A stretch of DNA of 64,000 bases from an uncultured Chloroflexia bacterium (GTDB lineage: Bacteria; Chloroflexota; Limnocylindria; Limnocylindrales; CSP1-4): positions 384,001 through 448,000 of the forward strand of contig CAVYBU010000007.1 of the NCBI GenBank assembly GCA_963766735.1. Direction: 5' to 3'. Numbering within the stretch: the first letter of the stretch is position 1; each line of letters starts with the position of its first letter. The notes beneath the pieces were generated by a model. The model did no database searches. It had not been told where the DNA came from and saw nothing but the letters and a program-made list of their open reading frames with translations. A program made the position numbers and the translations under genes. Positions 20,506 to 50,406 of this stretch are shown piece by piece.

Positions 20506-21135
20506 CTACAGGAGGCCCCGGACGACCTCGGCCACGGCCCGCCCGAGGACCCCGTGGGAGACGGCGTTGAGATGCACCCCGTCAGCCGGATCGCCGCTCA
20601 CCAGCGCCGACGCGTCCAGGAACGCGACGTCCCTCATCTCCGCCACAACCGCATACAGCCGCGGCAGGCGGTCGCTCGCGGCCCGCGCCGCCCCGAAGCC
20701 CCACAGCTCGGAGCGCTCCGTGGTCGTGCCGAGGCGCGGCGGCGCCAGCAGGAGCACGGTCGGCGGTCCCCCACCGGGACCCGCGCCGGATGCGAGCGCC
20801 AGGTCGATCAAGGCCCCCACGGCCGTGGCGATCTCGTGCGGCTGCCGGCCGAAGATCGACTTCAGGTCGTTGGTGCCGAGCATCAGCACCAGGACGTCGA
20901 CCGGCGCGTGGGACCGCAGGCACGGGAGCAGGTAGGGCCTGCCGTTCCGCCCACCCATGAACGGGTCGTCCCAAAGCGTCGTCCGGCCGTTGAGGCCCTC
21001 CTCGATCACCTCGGCAGCACCGGCGAGCTCGGCAGCGAGCACCCCCGGCCACCGGACGTCCCGCGGGAAGCGCGCCAGCGTCACGGGTTCGGCGCCGTGC
21101 GTGTTCGAGTCGCCATAGCAGACGACGGTGGCCAT
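20506..21135 (-). CDS. SGNH/GDSL hydrolase
   Basis: YGDSNT, EEGLNGRT, MLGTND, DGVHL. Confidence 0.92.
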   Translation of the reverse strand: MATVVCYGDSNTHGAEPVTLARFPRDVRWPGVLAAELAGAAEVIEEGLNGRTTLWDDPFMGGRNGRPYLLPCLRSHAPVDVLVLMLGTNDLKSIFGRQPHEIATAVGALIDLALASGAGPGGGPPTVLLLAPPRLGTTTERSELWGFGAARAASDRLPRLYAVVAEMRDVAFLDASALVSGDPADGVHLNAVSHGVLGRAVAEVVRGLL

Positions 21136-32850: not shown

Positions 32851-33531
32851 TCAGTCGATTACCAAGAGGACGTCGCCCACATCGATGTTCTGGCCAGGGG
32901 CAACGTTGACGCGGGAGATGGTGCCATCCCGCGGCGCCCGGAGCTCGTTCTGCATCTTCATGGCCTCGACGACGAGCAGATGCTCCCCGGCCGCGACCGC
33001 GTCACCGGCAGCCACGAAGACCGTCGCCACCTTGCCAGGGATGATTGCCTTGACCTGCAGCGGACCGCTCCGGGCGCCCGCAGCCCGTCCCCGCGAGGCA
33101 CGCTCGCGCAGGGCGGCGATGCGCTCGGACTCGGTCTCCACCTCGAACCGGAAGCCGTCCACCAGGACCTCCCGTCGGCGTGCCCCACCCTCCCCGGCCA
33201 CTGCCGGCTCCAGGACGACCCGCGTCACGCTGCCGTTCCCGGACAGCCGGAAGCGGCCGGATCCGAGCGACCGAAGGACGATGTCGGCAGGTGCGCCGTC
33301 CACCGTCACGGTGTGTCTTTGCGCACGGACACCCGCGCCGTCATCGCCCGCGGAGACGGGTCCGGCAGGCGACACGGTCAGGCCCGGCCCGTCCCTGTCC
33401 TGGCTCGCATCCGACATCCGAACGCGCACCCCACGCGGATCGACCGGGACGATGGGGAAGGTATCCACCCCGCCCGTGGCCCCGACCGTGCTGCGGGCCG
33501 CCACGCTGGTGGGGTCGGTCAGATCGGCCAT
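32851..33531 (-). CDS. Biotin carboxyl carrier protein
   Basis: EAMKM biotinylation motif in the C-terminal domain; start uncertain. Confidence 0.88.
33313..33332. repeat. Palindrome copy 1, candidate non-canonical parS (GTGTCTTTGCGCACGGACAC)
   Basis: Lies inside the BCCP gene, read there as CGT GCG CAA AGA CAC with rare codons. Confidence 0.6.
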
Positions 33532-35143: not shown

Positions 35144-35159
35144 GTCTTTGCGCAAAGAC
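35144..35159. repeat. Palindrome copy 2, perfect 16-mer GTCTTTGCGCAAAGAC
   Basis: Perfect inverted repeat in the pccB-accC spacer. Confidence 0.7.
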
Positions 35160-35171
35160 GGCATCCGCGTC

Positions 35172-36725
35172 TCAGAGGGGGATGTTTCCATGCTTCTTCC
35201 TGGGGTTCGTGTCTCGCTTGTCGGCAAGGATCTCCAGTGACCTGATGAGGCGTGGCCGCGTTTCGCGCGGAAGGATCACCTCGTCGATGTAGCCGCGCGC
35301 CGCGGCGGCATACGGACTCGAGAACTCCGACTCGTACTCGGCGACCAGGCGCTGCCGCTCCCCCGCCGCGTCATCGGCCCCCGCAATCGTGTCCTTGAAG
35401 ATGATGTTGACGGCACCTTCCGCCCCCATCACCGCAATTTCCGCCGTTGGCCAGGCGAAGTTCATGTCGCCCCGGATGTGCTTGCTGCTCATGACGTCGT
35501 AGGCACCGCCGTACGCCTTGCGGGTGATGACCGTGACCTTGGGGACGGTCGCCTCACAGTAGGCGTAGAGCAGCTTGGCACCGTGCTTGATGATCCCGCC
35601 ATGTTCCTGGCCGACCCCAGGCAGGAACCCCGGCACGTCCACGAAGGTGACGACGGGAACGTTGAACGCGTCGCAGGTCCGCACGAAGCGCGCGGCCTTG
35701 ACCGATGCGTCGATGTCCAGCGCTCCCGCGAGAACTGCCGGCTGCTGGGCGACGATGCCCACCGGTCGCCCGCCCAAACGGGCGAAGCCGATCAGGATGT
35801 TGGCGGCCCATGCCGGCTGCAGCTCGAAGAACTCGCCGTCGTCGAATACGTGTCGAAGGACCGCGTGCATGTCGTAGGGCCGCGACGATTCGTCGGGCAC
35901 CACGCTGTCGAGCTCCACGTCCATCCTGTCGGCGGGATCCGTCGACGCGACTCGCGGCGGATCCGCCAGGTTGTTCTGCGGCAGATGCGCAAGGAGCCGC
36001 CGGACGTGGTCCAGGGCCTCGGCCTCATCGCGGGCCGCGAGGTGTGCCACCCCGCTGACGCCGGTGTGGACGGCGGCGCCACCAAGTGCCTCCGAGTCAA
36101 CCTCCTCGTGGGTGACCGCCTTGACCACGTTCGGACCGGTGACGAACATGTAGCTCGTCCCCTCGACCATCACGGTGAAGTCCGTCATCGCCGGCGAGTA
36201 CACGGCACCACCCGCACACGGACCGAGGATCACCGAGATCTGCGGCACGACACCGGATGCCATCACGTTGCGCAGGAAGATCTCCGCATAGCCGCCCAGC
36301 GACGCCACGCCTTCCTGGATCCTCGCCCCGCCAGAATCGTTCAGACCGATGACGGGGGCTCCGACCTTCATGGCGAGGTCCATCACCTTGCAGATCTTCT
36401 CTGCATAGGCCTCGGACAGCGAGCCACCAAACACCGTGAAGTCCTGGCTGAAGACGAAGACGAGTCGGCCGTCAACGGTCCCGTGGCCGGTCACGACGCC
36501 GTCGCCCAGGAACAGTTGGCGGTCCAGGCCGAAGTCAGTGGCTCGGTGGGTCACAAACGCGTCGAGCTCGACGAAGGACCCCGCATCCAGCAACAGGTCG
36601 AGACGTTCGCGCGCGGTCAGCTTGCCCCAAGCGTGCTGTCGCTCCATGCGAACCGGTCCCCCGCCCAGGAGGGCCTCTGCCCGCATGCGCTCGAGGCGAG
36701 AGATACGATCCTCATTCTTCGTCAC
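35172..36725 (-). CDS. pccB: Propionyl-CoA carboxylase carboxyltransferase (beta) subunit
   Basis: [52 protein letters not shown]. Confidence 0.93.
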
Positions 36726-36755
36726 GTGGTGGGCTCCATCCGGTCAGGGGCTGTC

Positions 36756-36771
36756 GTCTTTGCGCAAGGAC
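36756..36771. repeat. Palindrome copy 3, GTCTTTGCGCAAGGAC
   Basis: In the divergent pccB/parA intergenic region; stem extends to GTCGTCTTTGCGCAAGGACGGC. Confidence 0.7.
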
Positions 36772-36848
36772 GGCGCGACACGACCCATCATAGGCTCACG
36801 GGCCGCCCGCGAAGAAGGGCTGAACGACAATGCATCGAATCCGGCTGG

Positions 36849-36890
36849 ATATCCACAGAAAGGTGCACAACCCGTCCGATCTGTGGACAA
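36849..36890. promoter_or_regulatory. Two DnaA-box-like 9-mers upstream of parA
   Basis: ATATCCACA (36849-36857) and TGTGGACAA = TTGTCCACA (36882-36890), each one mismatch from TTATCCACA. Confidence 0.55.
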
Positions 36891-36987
36891 CCTGGCGACG
36901 CGCCATTCGGAAGCGCGGAGTAGCATTCCCCCACTCGGACCCGCCGCCGGTCTCCGTCTCGCTTCTTCACTTCCCGAGGTGACGCTC

Positions 36988-37758
36988 TTGACACACGTGA
37001 TCGCCATCGCCAATCAGAAGGGCGGCGTGGGCAAGACGACGACCGCAATCAACCTTGCGGGCGCGCTCGCAGAACTTGGGCGAAGGGTCCTCCTCGTGGA
37101 CATGGACCCACAGGCGAACCTCACGGTCGGCGTCGGCATCAACCTCAACACCGTGGAACGCTCGATGGCCGACGTTCTCGCCGATGGTCGCTCGACGCTC
37201 ACAGAGGCGATCCTCCCAACGGAGACGGCCGGCATCGACGTCGCACCGGCGCACATCGACCTCGCGAGCACCGAGGGTGAGCTGTTCACCGCCCTGGGCC
37301 GCGAGCAGATCCTCAGCGAGGCGATGCGCGACGCGATCGATCCCTACGACTACGTACTGATCGACTGCCCGCCCAACCTGGGCCTGCTGACGGTCAACGG
37401 TCTCGTCGCCGCGGACAGCGTGATCATTCCGGTCCAGACGCAGTTCTACGCGATGAAGGGCCTCAACAACCTGGTCAAGGTCATCAACGCGATCCGGTTG
37501 AAGTTGAACCGGGACCTGCGGATCCTCGGCCTGCTGCCCACCTTCTACGACGGCCGCACCAACCTTGCCAAGGACATGCTGGACGAGCTGCGCGTGGTGG
37601 GTGATCACCATGTCTTCAACACCATCATCCGCCAGAGCGTGAAGCTGGGCGAGGCGCCCCTCGCGGGGCGGCCAATCACCGCCTATGCCAGCTCGTCCGA
37701 AGCAGCCCGTACATATCGTGAGCTCGCCCGGGAGGTGATCGAACTTGGCCAGGACTGA
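36988..37758 (+). CDS. parA: ParA/Soj family ATPase
   Basis: NQKGGVGKTT deviant Walker A, VDMDPQANL, IDCPPNLG; TTG start after GAGGT. Confidence 0.95.
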   Translation: MTHVIAIANQKGGVGKTTTAINLAGALAELGRRVLLVDMDPQANLTVGVGINLNTVERSMADVLADGRSTLTEAILPTETAGIDVAPAHIDLASTEGELFTALGREQILSEAMRDAIDPYDYVLIDCPPNLGLLTVNGLVAADSVIIPVQTQFYAMKGLNNLVKVINAIRLKLNRDLRILGLLPTFYDGRTNLAKDMLDELRVVGDHHVFNTIIRQSVKLGEAPLAGRPITAYASSSEAARTYRELAREVIELGQD

Positions 37759-38755
37759 TTTCCGCGCCGCCGCCGCCCGTCGACTCTCCGAGGAGCGGGA
37801 GCTTCCGCCTGCAATCGTGAGCCTCCTGTCACCGGACATGAACCGCCGCTCGACCGGCGTCAAGGTGATCGAGGTTGATCACATCGACTCCAATCCGGAG
37901 CAGCCACGCCTCGCCTTCGACGAGGCGACCCTCGAGGAGCTGGCAGCCTCGATCCGCGAGCATGGCGTCCTCCAGCCGATCCTCGTCCGACCGCGGGACA
38001 ACGGCCGCTACCAGTTGATCGCCGGGGAACGCCGCTGGCGCGCCTCGCGGATCGCCGGCATGGCCACGATCCCCGCCCTGGTCGAGGACATCGACGACGA
38101 CACCGCCCTCGAGATCTCGATCATCGAGAACCTCCAGCGGGAAGACATCTCCGTCCTCGACGAGGCCGCGATGTACGACCGGATGATCCGGGACCACGGT
38201 TACAGCATTCGCAAGCTCGCGGACAAGCTGGGCAAGGACAAGGGCTATCTCGAGAACCGGCTCCGGCTGGCTGACGCGCCGCCCGAGGTTCGGGAGCTCG
38301 TGTCTTTGCGCAAGGACACCCTGTCGCACGCCTACGAGCTCATGAAGGTCACCGACCCCCGGAAGCGCAGGAAGCTCGCCGATCAGGTCGCCCGCAACGA
38401 GCTCTCGCTGGTGAAGCTGCGCGAACGCATCGAGGGCCGGCGAGCCCGGGTCGCCAGCGCTGAGGAGCCGCAGGAGACCGGGATCGAGGCCGCCGCATCG
38501 CGTGTGGACGATGAGACGGCCGACTGGTCGGAGCATCGAGGCGCGGCCGAGCCGATCCGTGACGACAGCCTCGTGGCCGCCAAGCAGCAGCTCAACGAGG
38601 CGGTGGAGGATCTCCTGGACGTCATCCGGAACCCGGACGTCCTGGACGCCATCGGCGCTGTCGACCGCACCAACCTGGCCAAGTACCTGACGATCGCCAA
38701 GCTCCGGCTTGAGAACGCGATCGCGGTGATCCGCTCCGGGGACACGGACCGCTAG
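37745..38755 (+). CDS. parB: ParB/Spo0J family CTPase with atypical HTH specificity residues
   Basis: NPEQPR, GVLQPILV, AGERRWRA, IIENLQREDI; HTH reads GKDKGYLENRLRL. Confidence 0.94.
   Translation: MARTDFRAAAARRLSEERELPPAIVSLLSPDMNRRSTGVKVIEVDHIDSNPEQPRLAFDEATLEELAASIREHGVLQPILVRPRDNGRYQLIAGERRWRASRIAGMATIPALVEDIDDDTALEISIIENLQREDISVLDEAAMYDRMIRDHGYSIRKLADKLGKDKGYLENRLRLADAPPEVRELVSLRKDTLSHAYELMKVTDPRKRRKLADQVARNELSLVKLRERIEGRRARVASAEEPQETGIEAAASRVDDETADWSEHRGAAEPIRDDSLVAAKQQLNEAVEDLLDVIRNPDVLDAIGAVDRTNLAKYLTIAKLRLENAIAVIRSGDTDR
38300..38319. repeat. Palindrome copy 4 inside parB, GTGTCTTTGCGCAAGGACAC
   Basis: Encodes V-S-L-R-K-D-T using the rare codons TCT and TTG. Confidence 0.7.
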
Positions 38756-38781
38756 GTTCTCCCCGCCCCGTCCAGCAACCG

Positions 38782-38810
38782 CGAAGCCGGCGCCATTGGC
38801 GCCGGCTTCG
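38782..38810. terminator. Hairpin between convergent genes, probable bidirectional terminator
   Basis: CGAAGCCGGCGCCA-T-TGGCGCCGGCTTCG. Confidence 0.65.
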
Positions 38811-38848
38811 TCGTCACCGGGTGAGTTGCCCCCGTCGGGGCACCGGGA

Positions 38849-39446
38849 TCAGCGGGATGCCTTGCCGTGGGCGGCCCGGGCGGCGGCGCCCTTCGCCTTG
38901 CCCTCTGCAGACTTGCCTGCGGCCTTTGCGGCCTTCTCCGCAGCCTTTGCGGCCTTGTCGGCGGCCTTGTCGGCGGCCTTGTGCGGCCTTCGGGTTGGCA
39001 GCGCCACAGAACTCCGGCGTGACGGTCTCCCAGTCAAAGCCGACGACGCTCACGTCCAGGTGAGCAACGCACGAGACGAAGGCGCCGTGATTGGCAAAGC
39101 CCACTGGCGTCGCCATCCGGGCGGCAGTCGACACGAGGGCGCCGTGGGTGTCCTTCGGTTCCGTGCTCGCGGTCTCGTCCGCCTCGGGCGCCTTGGGAGC
39201 CTCGCTCGGCTCGGCGGTCTCGGTCGCCTCCGGGGTCTCGGTCGGCTCGGCGGTCTCGGTCGCCTCCGGGGTCTCGGTCGGCTCGGCGGTCTCGGTCGCC
39301 TCCGGGGTCTCGGTCGCCTCCGCGGCGATCTGGGTCGGCGACGAGACGCGGGCCTGGGGGGCGGCCGCGAAGGCGACCGTGGCGGAGATGGCCAGCACCG
39401 CGAGGGCGACGGCAAGGCTGCGGGAGCGGCGGAGAAGATCAGTCAT
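38849..39446 (-). CDS. Secreted low-complexity protein (TETPEA repeats, two HGAxVS motifs, Lys/Ala tail) with apparent frameshift near 38983
   Basis: Signal peptide ending AFA; the natural KAADKAAK tail lies in a different frame (ORF 38849..39037). Confidence 0.7.
39206..39321. repeat. Coding tandem repeat, 3 x 36 bp (PTETPEATETAE)
   Basis: Exact 36-bp units without spacers. Confidence 0.9.
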
Positions 39447-39595
39447 GGGCGCGAGAACCTCGGCTTGTGGGACGGTTGCATAGAGGGTAACGGGCACGGA
39501 CGGGGGTCTGTTAGGGGTACTTCCGGTCCCGGTGCACCCTACCCTGGGGATTGCCTACAGGCACCACTCCTGATGACCCGGACGGCAAAAAGGTT

Positions 39596-49403: not shown

Positions 49404-50406
49404 CTAGGACCCGAGGGTCGCGACCATGACCGCCTTGATGGTGTGGAGCCGGTTCTCGGCCTGGTCGAAGGCGACGCTGGCGGGCGACTCGAAGACCTCG
49501 TGGCTGACCTCCAGCCCGTCGGGCATGTCGGTGGCTTCCATCATCTCCCTGCCCGCGATCGTGTGGATGTCGTGGAACGCCGGCAGGCAGTGCATGAACT
49601 TCACGTCGTCAGTTGCCGGCCCGGGCCATGAGGCGGCTGTTGACCTGGTACGGCTTCAGCAGCGAGACGCGCTCGTTCCAGACGTCCTTGGACTCGCCCA
49701 TCGAGACCCACACGTCGGTGTGGATGAAGTCGACGCCCTCAACGGCTGCGGGGTCGTCGCTGACCGTGATCCTGGCGCCGGTGGTGGCCGCGATGTCCCG
49801 GGCGATCTCGAGCACGTCCGCCGGCGGTGCCAGCTGCTTGGGCCCGACCAGCCGGATGTCGCTGCCGAGCAACGCCGCGGTGACCAGGTGCGAGCGGCCC
49901 ATGTTGAAGCGCAGGTCGCCCATGAAGGCGTAGCTGAGCTGGTCGTAGTCCTTGCCGCTGGACTCGCCCATGGTCAGGAAGTCGGCCAGCATCTGGGTCG
50001 GATGCCACTCATCGGTGAGGCCGTTGTAGACCGGTACGCCCGCGGACTCCGCGAGCACCTCGACGTCGGCCTGGGCCTTGCCGCGGTACTCGAGGGCGTC
50101 GTAGTAGCGACCCAGGACCCTCGCCGTGTCCGCCACGGACTCCTTGTGGCCCAGCTGAGAGCTCACGGGGTCCAGGTACGTGACGTGTGCACCCTGGTCG
50201 TAGGAGGCCACCTCGAATGCGCAGCGCGTGCGCGTCGAGCTCTTCTCGAAGATCAGGGCGATGTTCTTGCCCTTCAGGCGCTGGACCTCGGTGCCGGCGT
50301 ACTTGGCGGTCTTGAGGTCGGCCGAGAGCTTGAGCAGGAAGCGCAGCTCCCCGGGCGTGAAGTCGATCTCCTTGACGAAGCTGCGGTTCCTGAGGTTGAC
50401 GGGCAC
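49404..50406 (-). pseudogene. argF: Ornithine carbamoyltransferase, frameshifted near 49611 (possibly sequencing error)
   Basis: STRTR, HPTQ, DVWVSMG, then FMHCLP and QAENR in the shifted frame (AAC-T-GAC GAC GTG). Confidence 0.9.

Follow-up and report, generated by a model that had tools for sequence, protein, structure and literature searches.

A ParB protein of Chloroflexota chromosomes with an altered DNA-contact surface and a 16-bp palindrome as its probable centromere

Which DNA site is read by a chromosomal partition protein when the residues that contact the usual site have changed? This question is raised by the parA-parB operon at positions 36988-38755 (+ strand) of a 64-kb stretch of DNA from an uncultured Chloroflexia bacterium (positions 384,001 to 448,000 of contig CAVYBU010000007.1, assembly GCA_963766735.1), the whole of which was analyzed and is referred to here as the window. 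The initial annotation of this stretch had read K, R, D, and S at the four specificity positions of ParB, and had proposed a third recognition code, with a candidate site encoded in the codons of the same protein segment. The comparisons presented here, which draw on sequence and on analogy with known systems, indicate that the DNA-binding surface of this ParB has probably been re-specified, and that its cognate centromere would be the 16-bp palindrome GTCYTTGC-GCAARGAC, rather than the canonical parS.

The palindrome cluster around parB

The 16-mer palindrome GTCTTTGCGCAAAGAC is present in four copies within 5 kb of the window, with none in the other ~59 kb at up to three mismatches. The expected number of copies in the window is 0.07, and four copies were reached in 0 of 100 shuffles. 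The copies recovered by the scan of the window, which have no strand, are as follows:

33315-33330: copy 1, GTCTTTGCGCACGGAC, two mismatches, inside the biotin-carrier-protein gene
35144-35159: copy 2, a perfect GTCTTTGCGCAAAGAC, between the biotin-carboxylase and carboxyltransferase genes
36756-36771: copy 3, one mismatch, between the carboxyltransferase gene and parA
38302-38317: copy 4, GTCTTTGCGCAAGGAC, one mismatch, inside parB, at codons V186-T192

Copies 2 and 3 are intergenic, and copies 1 and 4 lie within coding regions. The canonical parS (TGTTNCACGTGAAACA) has no match at up to three mismatches in the 64-kb window.

The cluster was followed in related genomes by scanning the GTDB species genomes with the 89-amino-acid helix-turn-helix (HTH) segment of ParB, which recovered 332 relatives, the best 80 of which were kept as 20-kb loci around parB, amounting to 1,375,123 bases and all at least 84% identical over the query. 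The labels of these loci refer to the Chloroflexota lineage in 79 cases, with 11 naming Limnocylindrales or Limnocylindria, and to Eisenbacteria in the case of one 4-kb contig. At up to two mismatches, at least one copy of the palindrome is found in 79 of the 80 loci, with 182 matches in the 694,403 bases upstream of parB (the copies inside the gene being counted apart), and none in the 678,320 bases downstream. At the same threshold, neither the canonical parS nor the Noc-binding site (NBS) has a match anywhere in the 1,375,123 bases.

The positions of the sites are also conserved. A site matches the position of copy 4, in parB, in 79/80 loci at up to two mismatches and in 80/80 at up to three, while the positions of copies 3, 2, and 1, at approximately -1.6, -3.2, and -5 kb, are occupied in 66/71, 66/69, and 40/67 loci, respectively, the denominators being the loci that reach each position. 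At approximately -3.2 kb, the scan at up to three mismatches recovers 69 sites, 30 of them perfect. In the intergenic copies, the 16-bp core is conserved and the flanks are not, with the consensus Y-GTCYTTGC-GCAARGAC-R. Additional copies near -7.8 kb, or perfect ones near -4.6 kb, are seen in some loci, which indicates that the sites turn over inside a cluster that is itself maintained. An unbiased survey of the perfect 12-mer palindromes of the loci ranks CTTTGCGCAAAG first (36 loci); runner-up 12-mers, such as TCGAGATCTCGA, were set aside, as they lie within the conserved coding sequence of parB.

The ParB protein and its DNA-contact residues

The features of the operon that bear on the protein, with the evidence for each in brackets, are the following:

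36988-37758, + strand: parA, a Walker-type partition ATPase of ~256 amino acids, in the small Soj-like form (open reading frame, Pfam)
37745-38755, + strand: parB, 336 amino acids, made up of a CTPase domain at the N-terminus, followed by an HTH domain, a disordered linker, and a C-terminal domain of helices (Pfam, NCBIfam, PDB matches, AlphaFold2)
38024-38044, + strand: GERRWRA, the CTP-binding motif (box II) of the N-terminal domain (sequence, conservation in the protein alignment)
38126-38143, + strand: ENLQRE, box III of the CTPase motifs (sequence, conservation in the protein alignment)
38207-38335, + strand: DNA-contact segment of the HTH domain (HMMER alignment to 6t1f_A, contact list of PMC7383237)

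The parA frame starts at a TTG (36988), preceded by GAGGTGA and aligned with the GTG starts of related loci, and the region 36958-37755 matches the Pfam family AAA_31 (8.1e-64), together with CbiA and ParA. The parA stop overlaps the parB start by 14 nt. The true start of parB is most likely the TTG at 37745, which gives the 336 residues, rather than an internal ATG, given that the 31-residue N-terminal extension is kept in homologues that lack the internal methionine. The cognate Walker-type ParA thus adjoins ParB, as in a ParABS system.

The protein belongs to the ParB/Spo0J family by its domains, motifs, fold, and partner. It matches the Pfam families ParB_N (1.5e-36) and HTH_ParB (3.2e-17), and scores 165.7 bits for the NCBIfam TIGR00180, against a cutoff of 58.45. 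Its sequence matches in the PDB are ParB/Noc/Spo0J proteins, with KorB structures also among them, and the best is the Geobacillus Noc 7ng0_A (E = 1.7e-40); identity to the solved ParBs is 37-41%. The GERR and ENLQR motifs, described as intact in the initial annotation, are indeed so, with G94, E95, R96, R97, W98, R99, and A100 invariant or nearly so in the protein alignment, E128, L130, and R132 invariant, and N129, Q131, and E133 at least 90% conserved. AlphaFold2, run on a 24-row alignment, yields a model with a mean predicted local distance difference test (pLDDT) of 77.6, high confidence over residues 40-230, a disordered linker at 233-270, and three C-terminal helices at 273-331 (pLDDT of 76-90 by block over 271-330). 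This C-terminal region has no Pfam match, and the matching solved structures are C-terminally truncated chains. The best PDB matches of the model in Foldseek are the ParB/Spo0J proteins of Myxococcus, Caulobacter, Thermus, and Helicobacter, together with Noc and KorB, and the structures 6s6h and 6y93 of ParB/Noc DNA-binding domains are also matched. The predicted model and its Foldseek matches confirm the ParB fold, and carry no information on specificity.

The presence of KorB among these matches raises the possibility that ParB, once bound to the palindrome, acts mainly as a silencer or autoregulator of parAB and the carboxylase genes, rather than at a centromere. KorB has been reported as a sliding-clamp repressor (PMC11790492), and copies 2 and 3 lie in intergenic, promoter-bearing regions. 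Coding regions contain two of the four copies, however, the cognate ParA is co-transcribed, and the KorB match in Pfam falls below its cutoff (20.5 vs 22.3 bits). Regulation and partition may, in addition, coexist in ParB proteins, and a mainly regulatory role is the least credible of the alternatives in which some protein does read the site.

The residues of the HTH domain were paired by a HMMER alignment to the Caulobacter ParB chain 6t1f_A (E = 2.5e-38), which is gap-free across this stretch. In the segment GKDKGYLENRLRLADAPPEVRELVSLRKDTLSHA, encoded at 38231-38332 (+ strand) within the open reading frame 37745-38755, Caulobacter R173, T179, A184, and G201 are paired with K (38240-38242), R (38258-38260), D (38273-38275), and S (38324-38326), that is, K166, R172, D177, and S194 in the numbering of the 336-residue protein. 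The K/R/D/S reading of the initial annotation is, therefore, borne out by this alignment. Its assignment of RTAG at positions 173/179/184/201 to parS-binding ParB and of QKKR to Noc, and the spacing of these positions, match those given in PMC7383237, and the Geobacillus Noc (7ng0_A) has Q/K/K/R at the four columns.

The contact list of that study extends the comparison to ten residues (Caulobacter in brackets): I155 (Q162), G163 (G170), K164 (K171), D165 (S172), K166 (R173), N171 (N178), R172 (T179), D177 (A184), S194 (G201), and Y197 (R204). Six of these, Q162, G170, K171, S172, N178, and R204, are parS contacts common to ParB and Noc (PMC7383237), and they read I, G, K, D, N, and Y here, with Q162, S172, and R204 changed. 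In the mutational scan reported in the same work, the parS-specific variants always have R at 173, which hydrogen-bonds guanine 1 of parS, and accept 17 residues at 179 (not P, D, or E), any residue at 184, and G, C, S, or T at 201 (PMC7383237). In Caulobacter numbering, used for the contacts from here on, parS binders can have R179, D184, or S201, which are thus not diagnostic, whereas K173 is, and the changes at Q162, S172, and R204 are more telling than those at 179, 184, and 201. The interpretation in the initial annotation is supported in part: a non-canonical palindrome is clustered at the gene, but K173 is the one residue of the four that argues for a switch.

The 150 best representatives of the family (clusters at 50% identity) include 144 that cover all ten contact positions; their shares are not natural frequencies, as the order of the list follows similarity to the query. 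Six of the 144 have other residues at position 173, and the remainder are distributed as follows:

R173 group (n = 74): 162 Q or H in 70; 179 R in 0; 184 D in 5; 201 G in 69 and S in 3; 204 R or K in 74
K173 group (n = 64): 162 I, V, L, or Y in 64; 172 D in 54; 179 R in 62; 184 D in 47; 201 S in 50; 204 Y in 52

In view of the mutational scan, K-R-D-S was overstated as a code, and D184 and S201 also occur in the R173 group, in five and three cases, respectively. A ParB/Noc alignment and tree had been suggested as a check, and in a quick maximum-likelihood tree of 109 rows (midpoint root, support by the Shimodaira-Hasegawa-like approximate likelihood-ratio test, SH-aLRT, only), the K173 proteins form one clade of 32 rows (SH-aLRT 98) nested among the canonical ParBs. 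Within this clade, 21 rows make up the sub-clade of the KRDS family (support 96), whose sister group has other signatures; those of the sister K173 subgroups include I/V-G-K-G-K-D/E-R-R/K-T-R and Y-G-K-S-K-N-R-Q-S-Y. Among database proteins, the 120 closest to the window ParB are 79-100% identical to it, and 119 of them have the full ten-residue signature; where named, they derive from metagenome-assembled genomes (MAGs) of Chloroflexi, Chloroflexota, or Limnocylindrales. The KRDS-type signature is kept in all 80 related loci, with I162 in 73, V162 in six, and G184 in one. The protein very probably reads neither the canonical parS nor the NBS.

Some irregularities were observed in the related loci. 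The parB frame is broken into at least two pieces, or fused to the upstream open reading frame, in five of them (L010, with a 930-residue frame, L012, L022, L067, and L073), which are probably assembly frameshifts in the MAGs. Two MAGs carry the parB locus on two to three contigs with different site spacings (L046, L047, and L073; L071 and L079), and mixed strains or duplicated contig ends in the bin are more likely here than paralogues.

The copy inside parB and the reader of the palindrome

The fourth copy of the palindrome forms part of a 20-nt palindrome, GTGTCTTTGCGCAAGGACAC, at 38300-38319, which is encoded by the codons V-S-L-R-K-D-T. The codon choice over this short segment departs from that of the rest of the gene. 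Val186 is GTG in 80/80 loci, while GTG accounts for 23% of the valine codons in the rest of parB; Ser187 is TCT in 50/80 loci (background of 1.7% in the rest of parB), Leu188 is TTG in 71/80 (2.3%), and Lys190 is AAA in 34/80 (2.4%). When the 30 leucine positions conserved in at least 60 loci are compared, TTR is found at Leu188 in 99% of the loci, and in no more than 7% at each of the other 29. The in-gene copy is under selection at the DNA level and is held by rare codons.

The codons of Ser187 and Lys190 are also related to one another, in the pairs TCT+AAG (42 loci), TCC+AAA (27), TCT+AAA (7), TCC+AAG (2), and others (2). The two rare codons, TCT and AAA, are thus almost mutually exclusive, and they occupy the mirrored positions 4 and 13 of the palindrome, which leaves exactly one mismatch in 72 of the 80 in-gene copies and none of the 80 perfect, although these counts come from related genomes and represent few evolutionary events. 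In the intergenic sites, the variation of T/G at site position 5 and of T/C at position 4 is independent of the protein.

The initial annotation had placed the candidate site in the VSLRKDT codons and had concluded that protein and DNA constrain each other. This mutual constraint holds, but the segment is outside the recognition helix (alpha4): its Caulobacter counterpart is residues 193-199, which lie after alpha4 and before alpha6, and it corresponds to the helices at 180-188 and 190-199 of the AlphaFold2 model. V186, R189, and D191 do not vary anywhere in the K173 clade, even in proteins without this palindrome, so the peptide frame is older than the palindrome, and the site was accommodated on it by choices that are synonymous or conservative. 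The protein does, therefore, force part of the DNA word, and the palindrome might be seen as a by-product of the coding of a conserved peptide, joined by chance matches elsewhere. The conserved core and unconserved flanks of the two intergenic copies, the excess of copies over expectation, and the fixation of synonymous positions on rare codons make such an origin extremely improbable.

Given this, the question becomes which protein reads the site. ParB is the likely reader, because the cluster straddles parAB, the architecture of the site is parS-like, and a relative from the same phylum, the ParB of a plasmid of Candidatus Chlorohelix allophototropha, has a similar site. On these grounds, ParB would bind the palindrome, and the complex would work as a centromere. 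In the mechanism proposed here, the four to six copies, spread over ~5 kb and reaching from the acyl-CoA carboxylase genes into parB, would serve as nucleation points for ParB dimers, the intact CTP motifs would allow ParB to close into a clamp and then spread, and the small Walker-type ParA would move the resulting ParB-DNA complex.

The palindrome may, alternatively, be the operator of another protein, such as a regulator of the carboxylase genes, with ParB keeping a canonical or relaxed specificity for sites elsewhere, and with the nearness of the palindrome to parB resulting from synteny. The genes for the biotin carrier, the biotin carboxylase, and the carboxyltransferase contain or flank copies 1-3, the synteny is common to all the loci, and the tolerance of parS binders for R179, D184, and S201 would be compatible with this account. 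A carboxylase regulator does not, however, explain a copy held by rare codons inside parB, and there is no regulator gene in the Pfam-scanned part of the conserved block. Nor would a canonical specificity be expected of a protein in which R173 and three other conserved contacts are replaced, and around whose gene no canonical parS is found in 1.375 Mb. The Chlorohelix relative, moreover, has its palindrome pair beside parB with no carboxylase genes nearby. An operator of this kind is a very unlikely explanation, if slightly less so than the silencer role discussed above.

A number of points weigh against the assignment of the palindrome to a re-specified ParB. The joint occurrence of KRDS-type proteins and the palindrome, proposed at the outset as a check, is found throughout the related loci (the signature in 80/80, the palindrome in 79/80, and no canonical parS), but these represent a single syntenic lineage, so that the counts reflect conservation, rather than 80 independent co-occurrences. 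The set is, in addition, composed of the KRDS type only, and the absence of the canonical parS refers to the surroundings of parB, rather than to whole genomes, in which a canonical ParB with canonical parS may lie, for example, beside dnaA. Acyl-CoA carboxylase genes contain or adjoin three of the four copies, and a metabolic regulator is conceivable as an alternative reader. The residues at 179, 184, and 201 are all within the range of the published parS scan (PMC7383237), and lysine is chemically close to arginine. The Leu188/Val188 variants of the protein, which change site position 5, show no covariation with the intergenic sites of the same locus. Finally, the link between ParB and the palindrome is drawn from position, architecture, and analogy. 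Even with these points taken into account, a re-specified ParB with the palindrome as its centromere is the probable reading of the locus.

Genomic setting and comparison with known systems

The window is chromosomal DNA with a G+C content of 70%, and includes the dcw cell-division cluster (mraZ to ftsZ, with ftsA), the RNase P RNA, sdhAB, sucCD, methylmalonyl-CoA mutase, the acyl-CoA carboxylase set, and two tRNAs. The operon is the parAB of a Chloroflexota (Limnocylindria-like) chromosome, and its neighbors are the carboxylase genes, among which the biotin-carrier-protein gene is located at 32854-33531 on the minus strand. In many bacteria, the classic parAB neighborhood consists of rsmG, jag, yidC, rnpA, and dnaA.

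A number of features hint at the proximity of the replication origin. The cumulative GC skew of the window reaches its lowest value at ~38-42 kb, at parB and immediately beyond it, and then climbs, which is suggestive of origin proximity, although a stretch of 64 kb is too short to decide. Between 34 and 40 kb, the G+C content drops to 0.67-0.68. Upstream of parA, at 36849-36890, two DnaA-box-like 9-mers form an inverted pair, ATATCCACA (+ strand) and a perfect TTGTCCACA (- strand). In the 80 loci (1.375 Mb), 73 of the 75 perfect matches to TTRTCCACA fall in one 250-bp bin just upstream of parA, which contains the motif in 70 of the loci, and an alignment of the window with 15 of the 80 loci reveals the conserved block GATATCCACAGAAACGGTG[A/C]ACAA...TGTGGA[T/C]AAC. 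DnaA boxes are not enriched across the window as a whole (eight matches vs 6.9 expected), and the DnaA family has no match among the window reading frames scanned. The pair upstream of parA, the only one set apart by its conservation in related loci, could represent the control of parAB by DnaA, or be part of an origin.

These features bear on a further alternative, in which ParB does read the palindrome, but as part of an accessory or acquired plasmid-type module that has become fixed in the chromosome, with a canonical pair near the origin responsible for the main part of segregation. The only HTH relatives in the plasmid collection are from two Chlorohelix plasmids, one of them in the K173 group, the operon adjoins carboxylase genes instead of the classic neighborhood, and the sequence available covers loci, rather than whole genomes. 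On the other hand, all 80 loci, from contigs that reach 3.6 Mb, place the operon within a conserved synteny of housekeeping genes, and there is exactly one ParB locus per source, both in the 64-kb window and in each 20-kb locus. The ParA is of the small chromosomal type, no plasmid ParB in PLSDB is more than 41% identical to that of the window, and the conserved DnaA-box-like pair and the skew minimum hint at origin proximity. An accessory module is, therefore, unlikely, though it is the strongest of the competing accounts. Whether the new site has replaced the canonical parS throughout the genome is a separate matter, on which the probabilities are about evenly balanced.

Other observations on the window concern the surroundings of the operon. 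Two short conserved blocks upstream of parA, CATCATAGG (36790-36800, shortly after the palindrome) and GGAGTAGCAT(G/T) (36918-36928, before the ribosome-binding site), are possibly promoter elements; a consensus scan of 36600-39000 found no sigma-70-type promoter, and a single terminator-like match that is at the level of chance. Directly downstream of parB, a repeat-rich reading frame on the minus strand (38814-39497) has repeats at 38912-38990 and 39183-39325, with four 36-bp units coding for repeats rich in Pro/Thr/Glu/Ala, after which comes a tail rich in Ala/Lys that has 12/21-bp repeats. Farther away, an ornithine/aspartate carbamoyltransferase is divided between two adjacent reading frames in different frames (49407-50406, minus strand), with OTCace_N and the first part of OTCace at 49612-50406 and the remainder at 49407-49604. 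This split is a frameshift, an assembly error, or a pseudogene.

Comparison with the canonical ParB/Spo0J systems reveals both shared and divergent features. The domain set, the fold, the CTP motifs, and the parA-parB operon are common to the window ParB, and the canonical parS, like the window site, is a 16-bp palindrome centered on CG, the copies of which cluster around the gene. The spo0J gene of Bacillus subtilis also contains a parS copy within the gene itself. When the two sites are aligned on their centers, however, the canonical parS differs from the window site in 4/8 arm positions, and the canonical contacts R173, G201, Q162, S172, and R204 are K, S, I, D, and Y in the window ParB. 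Neither the nearby canonical parS nor the set of contacts (R173/G201 plus Q162/S172/R204) that characterize the canonical subfamily is found here.

Noc is a ParB-derived protein in which specificity has been switched at the same surface (PMC7383237). Its signature is Q/K/K/R, compared with K/R/D/S here, and the window protein scores 194.2 bits for the Noc family TIGR04285, against a cutoff of 315. The related loci have no NBS at up to two mismatches, and the system described here includes a ParA partner and a cluster of sites. Noc is not known outside the Firmicutes, is not known to have a ParA partner, and has scattered sites. The window ParB is not Noc.

The ParBs of secondary replicons and plasmids, each with its own 16-bp palindrome, are already well known in the superfamily (PMC5450999, PMC7022226), so the specificity proposed here cannot be counted as the third. 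The Bsr and chromosomal parS sites are described as palindromes of 16 bp in which the arm is T-rich, the center is CG, and the 6-bp core is composed of two C, two G, one A, and one T (PMC5450999), an architecture that is fitted by the window site, with its half-sites GTCTTTGC and GCAAAGAC. The chromosome-2 parS of Burkholderia cenocepacia, gTTTATGCGCATAAAc, has the TGCGCA core and 6/8 arm positions in common with it (Table 1 of PMC7022226). This likeness concerns the architecture of the sites. The Bsr systems are found on the secondary chromosomes and plasmids of the Burkholderiales (Proteobacteria), whereas the system of the window is in the housekeeping synteny of a Chloroflexota chromosome.

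The Chlorohelix protein, encoded by the plasmid NZ_CP128402.1, is 39% identical to the window ParB and has the signature I-G-K-D-K-N-R-K-R-R, in which I162, D172, K173, N178, and R179 are shared with the window protein. It differs in being plasmid-borne, and in having K184, R201, and R204 in place of D, S, and Y. Two perfect copies of the palindrome GTCTGTATATACAGAC are located in the 229-bp spacer after its parB (20808-20823 and 20892-20907), and this word is found nowhere else in 40.6 kb of the plasmid sequence (0.06 expected). The outer GTCT/AGAC of this palindrome is the same as that of the window site, while the inner 8 bp are GTATATAC, compared with TTGCGCAA. By position and sequence, the pair is the likely parS of the plasmid; it is apparently without annotation in the NZ_CP128402.1 record. 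The case fits a clade that would read sites of the GTC-N10-GAC type, as a single comparison between two predicted sites. The second Chlorohelix plasmid is uninformative, as its ParB is 31% identical, with G-E at 172-173, and has no repeated palindrome nearby.

A broader view, which can be offered tentatively and falls somewhat short of an even chance, is that a class of Chloroflexota has replaced the near-universal centromere. In these bacteria, the sole ParB would come from the K173 clade, reading GTC-N10-GAC palindromes with inner bases specific to each subgroup, and its parS would be locked in place through the rare-codon copy inside parB, beside a DnaA-box region that is maybe the origin. 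A different palindrome across many chromosomes of uncultured soil and freshwater Chloroflexota would, if confirmed, be an exception to the near-universal chromosomal centromere. It would also extend the work on ParB/Noc specificity (PMC7383237) with a natural case that combines K173 with changes in three contacts shared by ParB and Noc, and, if the replacement is real, it would provide a third end-point of natural origin, within the clade of chromosomal ParBs, for the study of how ParB-parS specificity evolves. The ParB-parS and Noc-NBS pairs already serve as orthogonal DNA tags (PMC11109969, PMC11798528), and a further pair that does not cross-react would be useful for DNA labelling, being likely, if the assignment holds, to be orthogonal to both parS and NBS. 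A site that overlaps the codons of the DNA-binding domain of its presumed reader, and is held there by rare codons, is in addition a clean example of dual coding.

In the literature searched, no published report of this site or of this ParB family was found, and the site word TTTGCGCAAA together with parS returned only unrelated papers. Given that ParBs with private palindromes are known from plasmids and secondary chromosomes, the principle is not new. What appears to be new, in comparison with these systems, is the lineage-wide, chromosome-borne case in the Chloroflexota, the sequence of the site, and the dual-coded copy inside parB.

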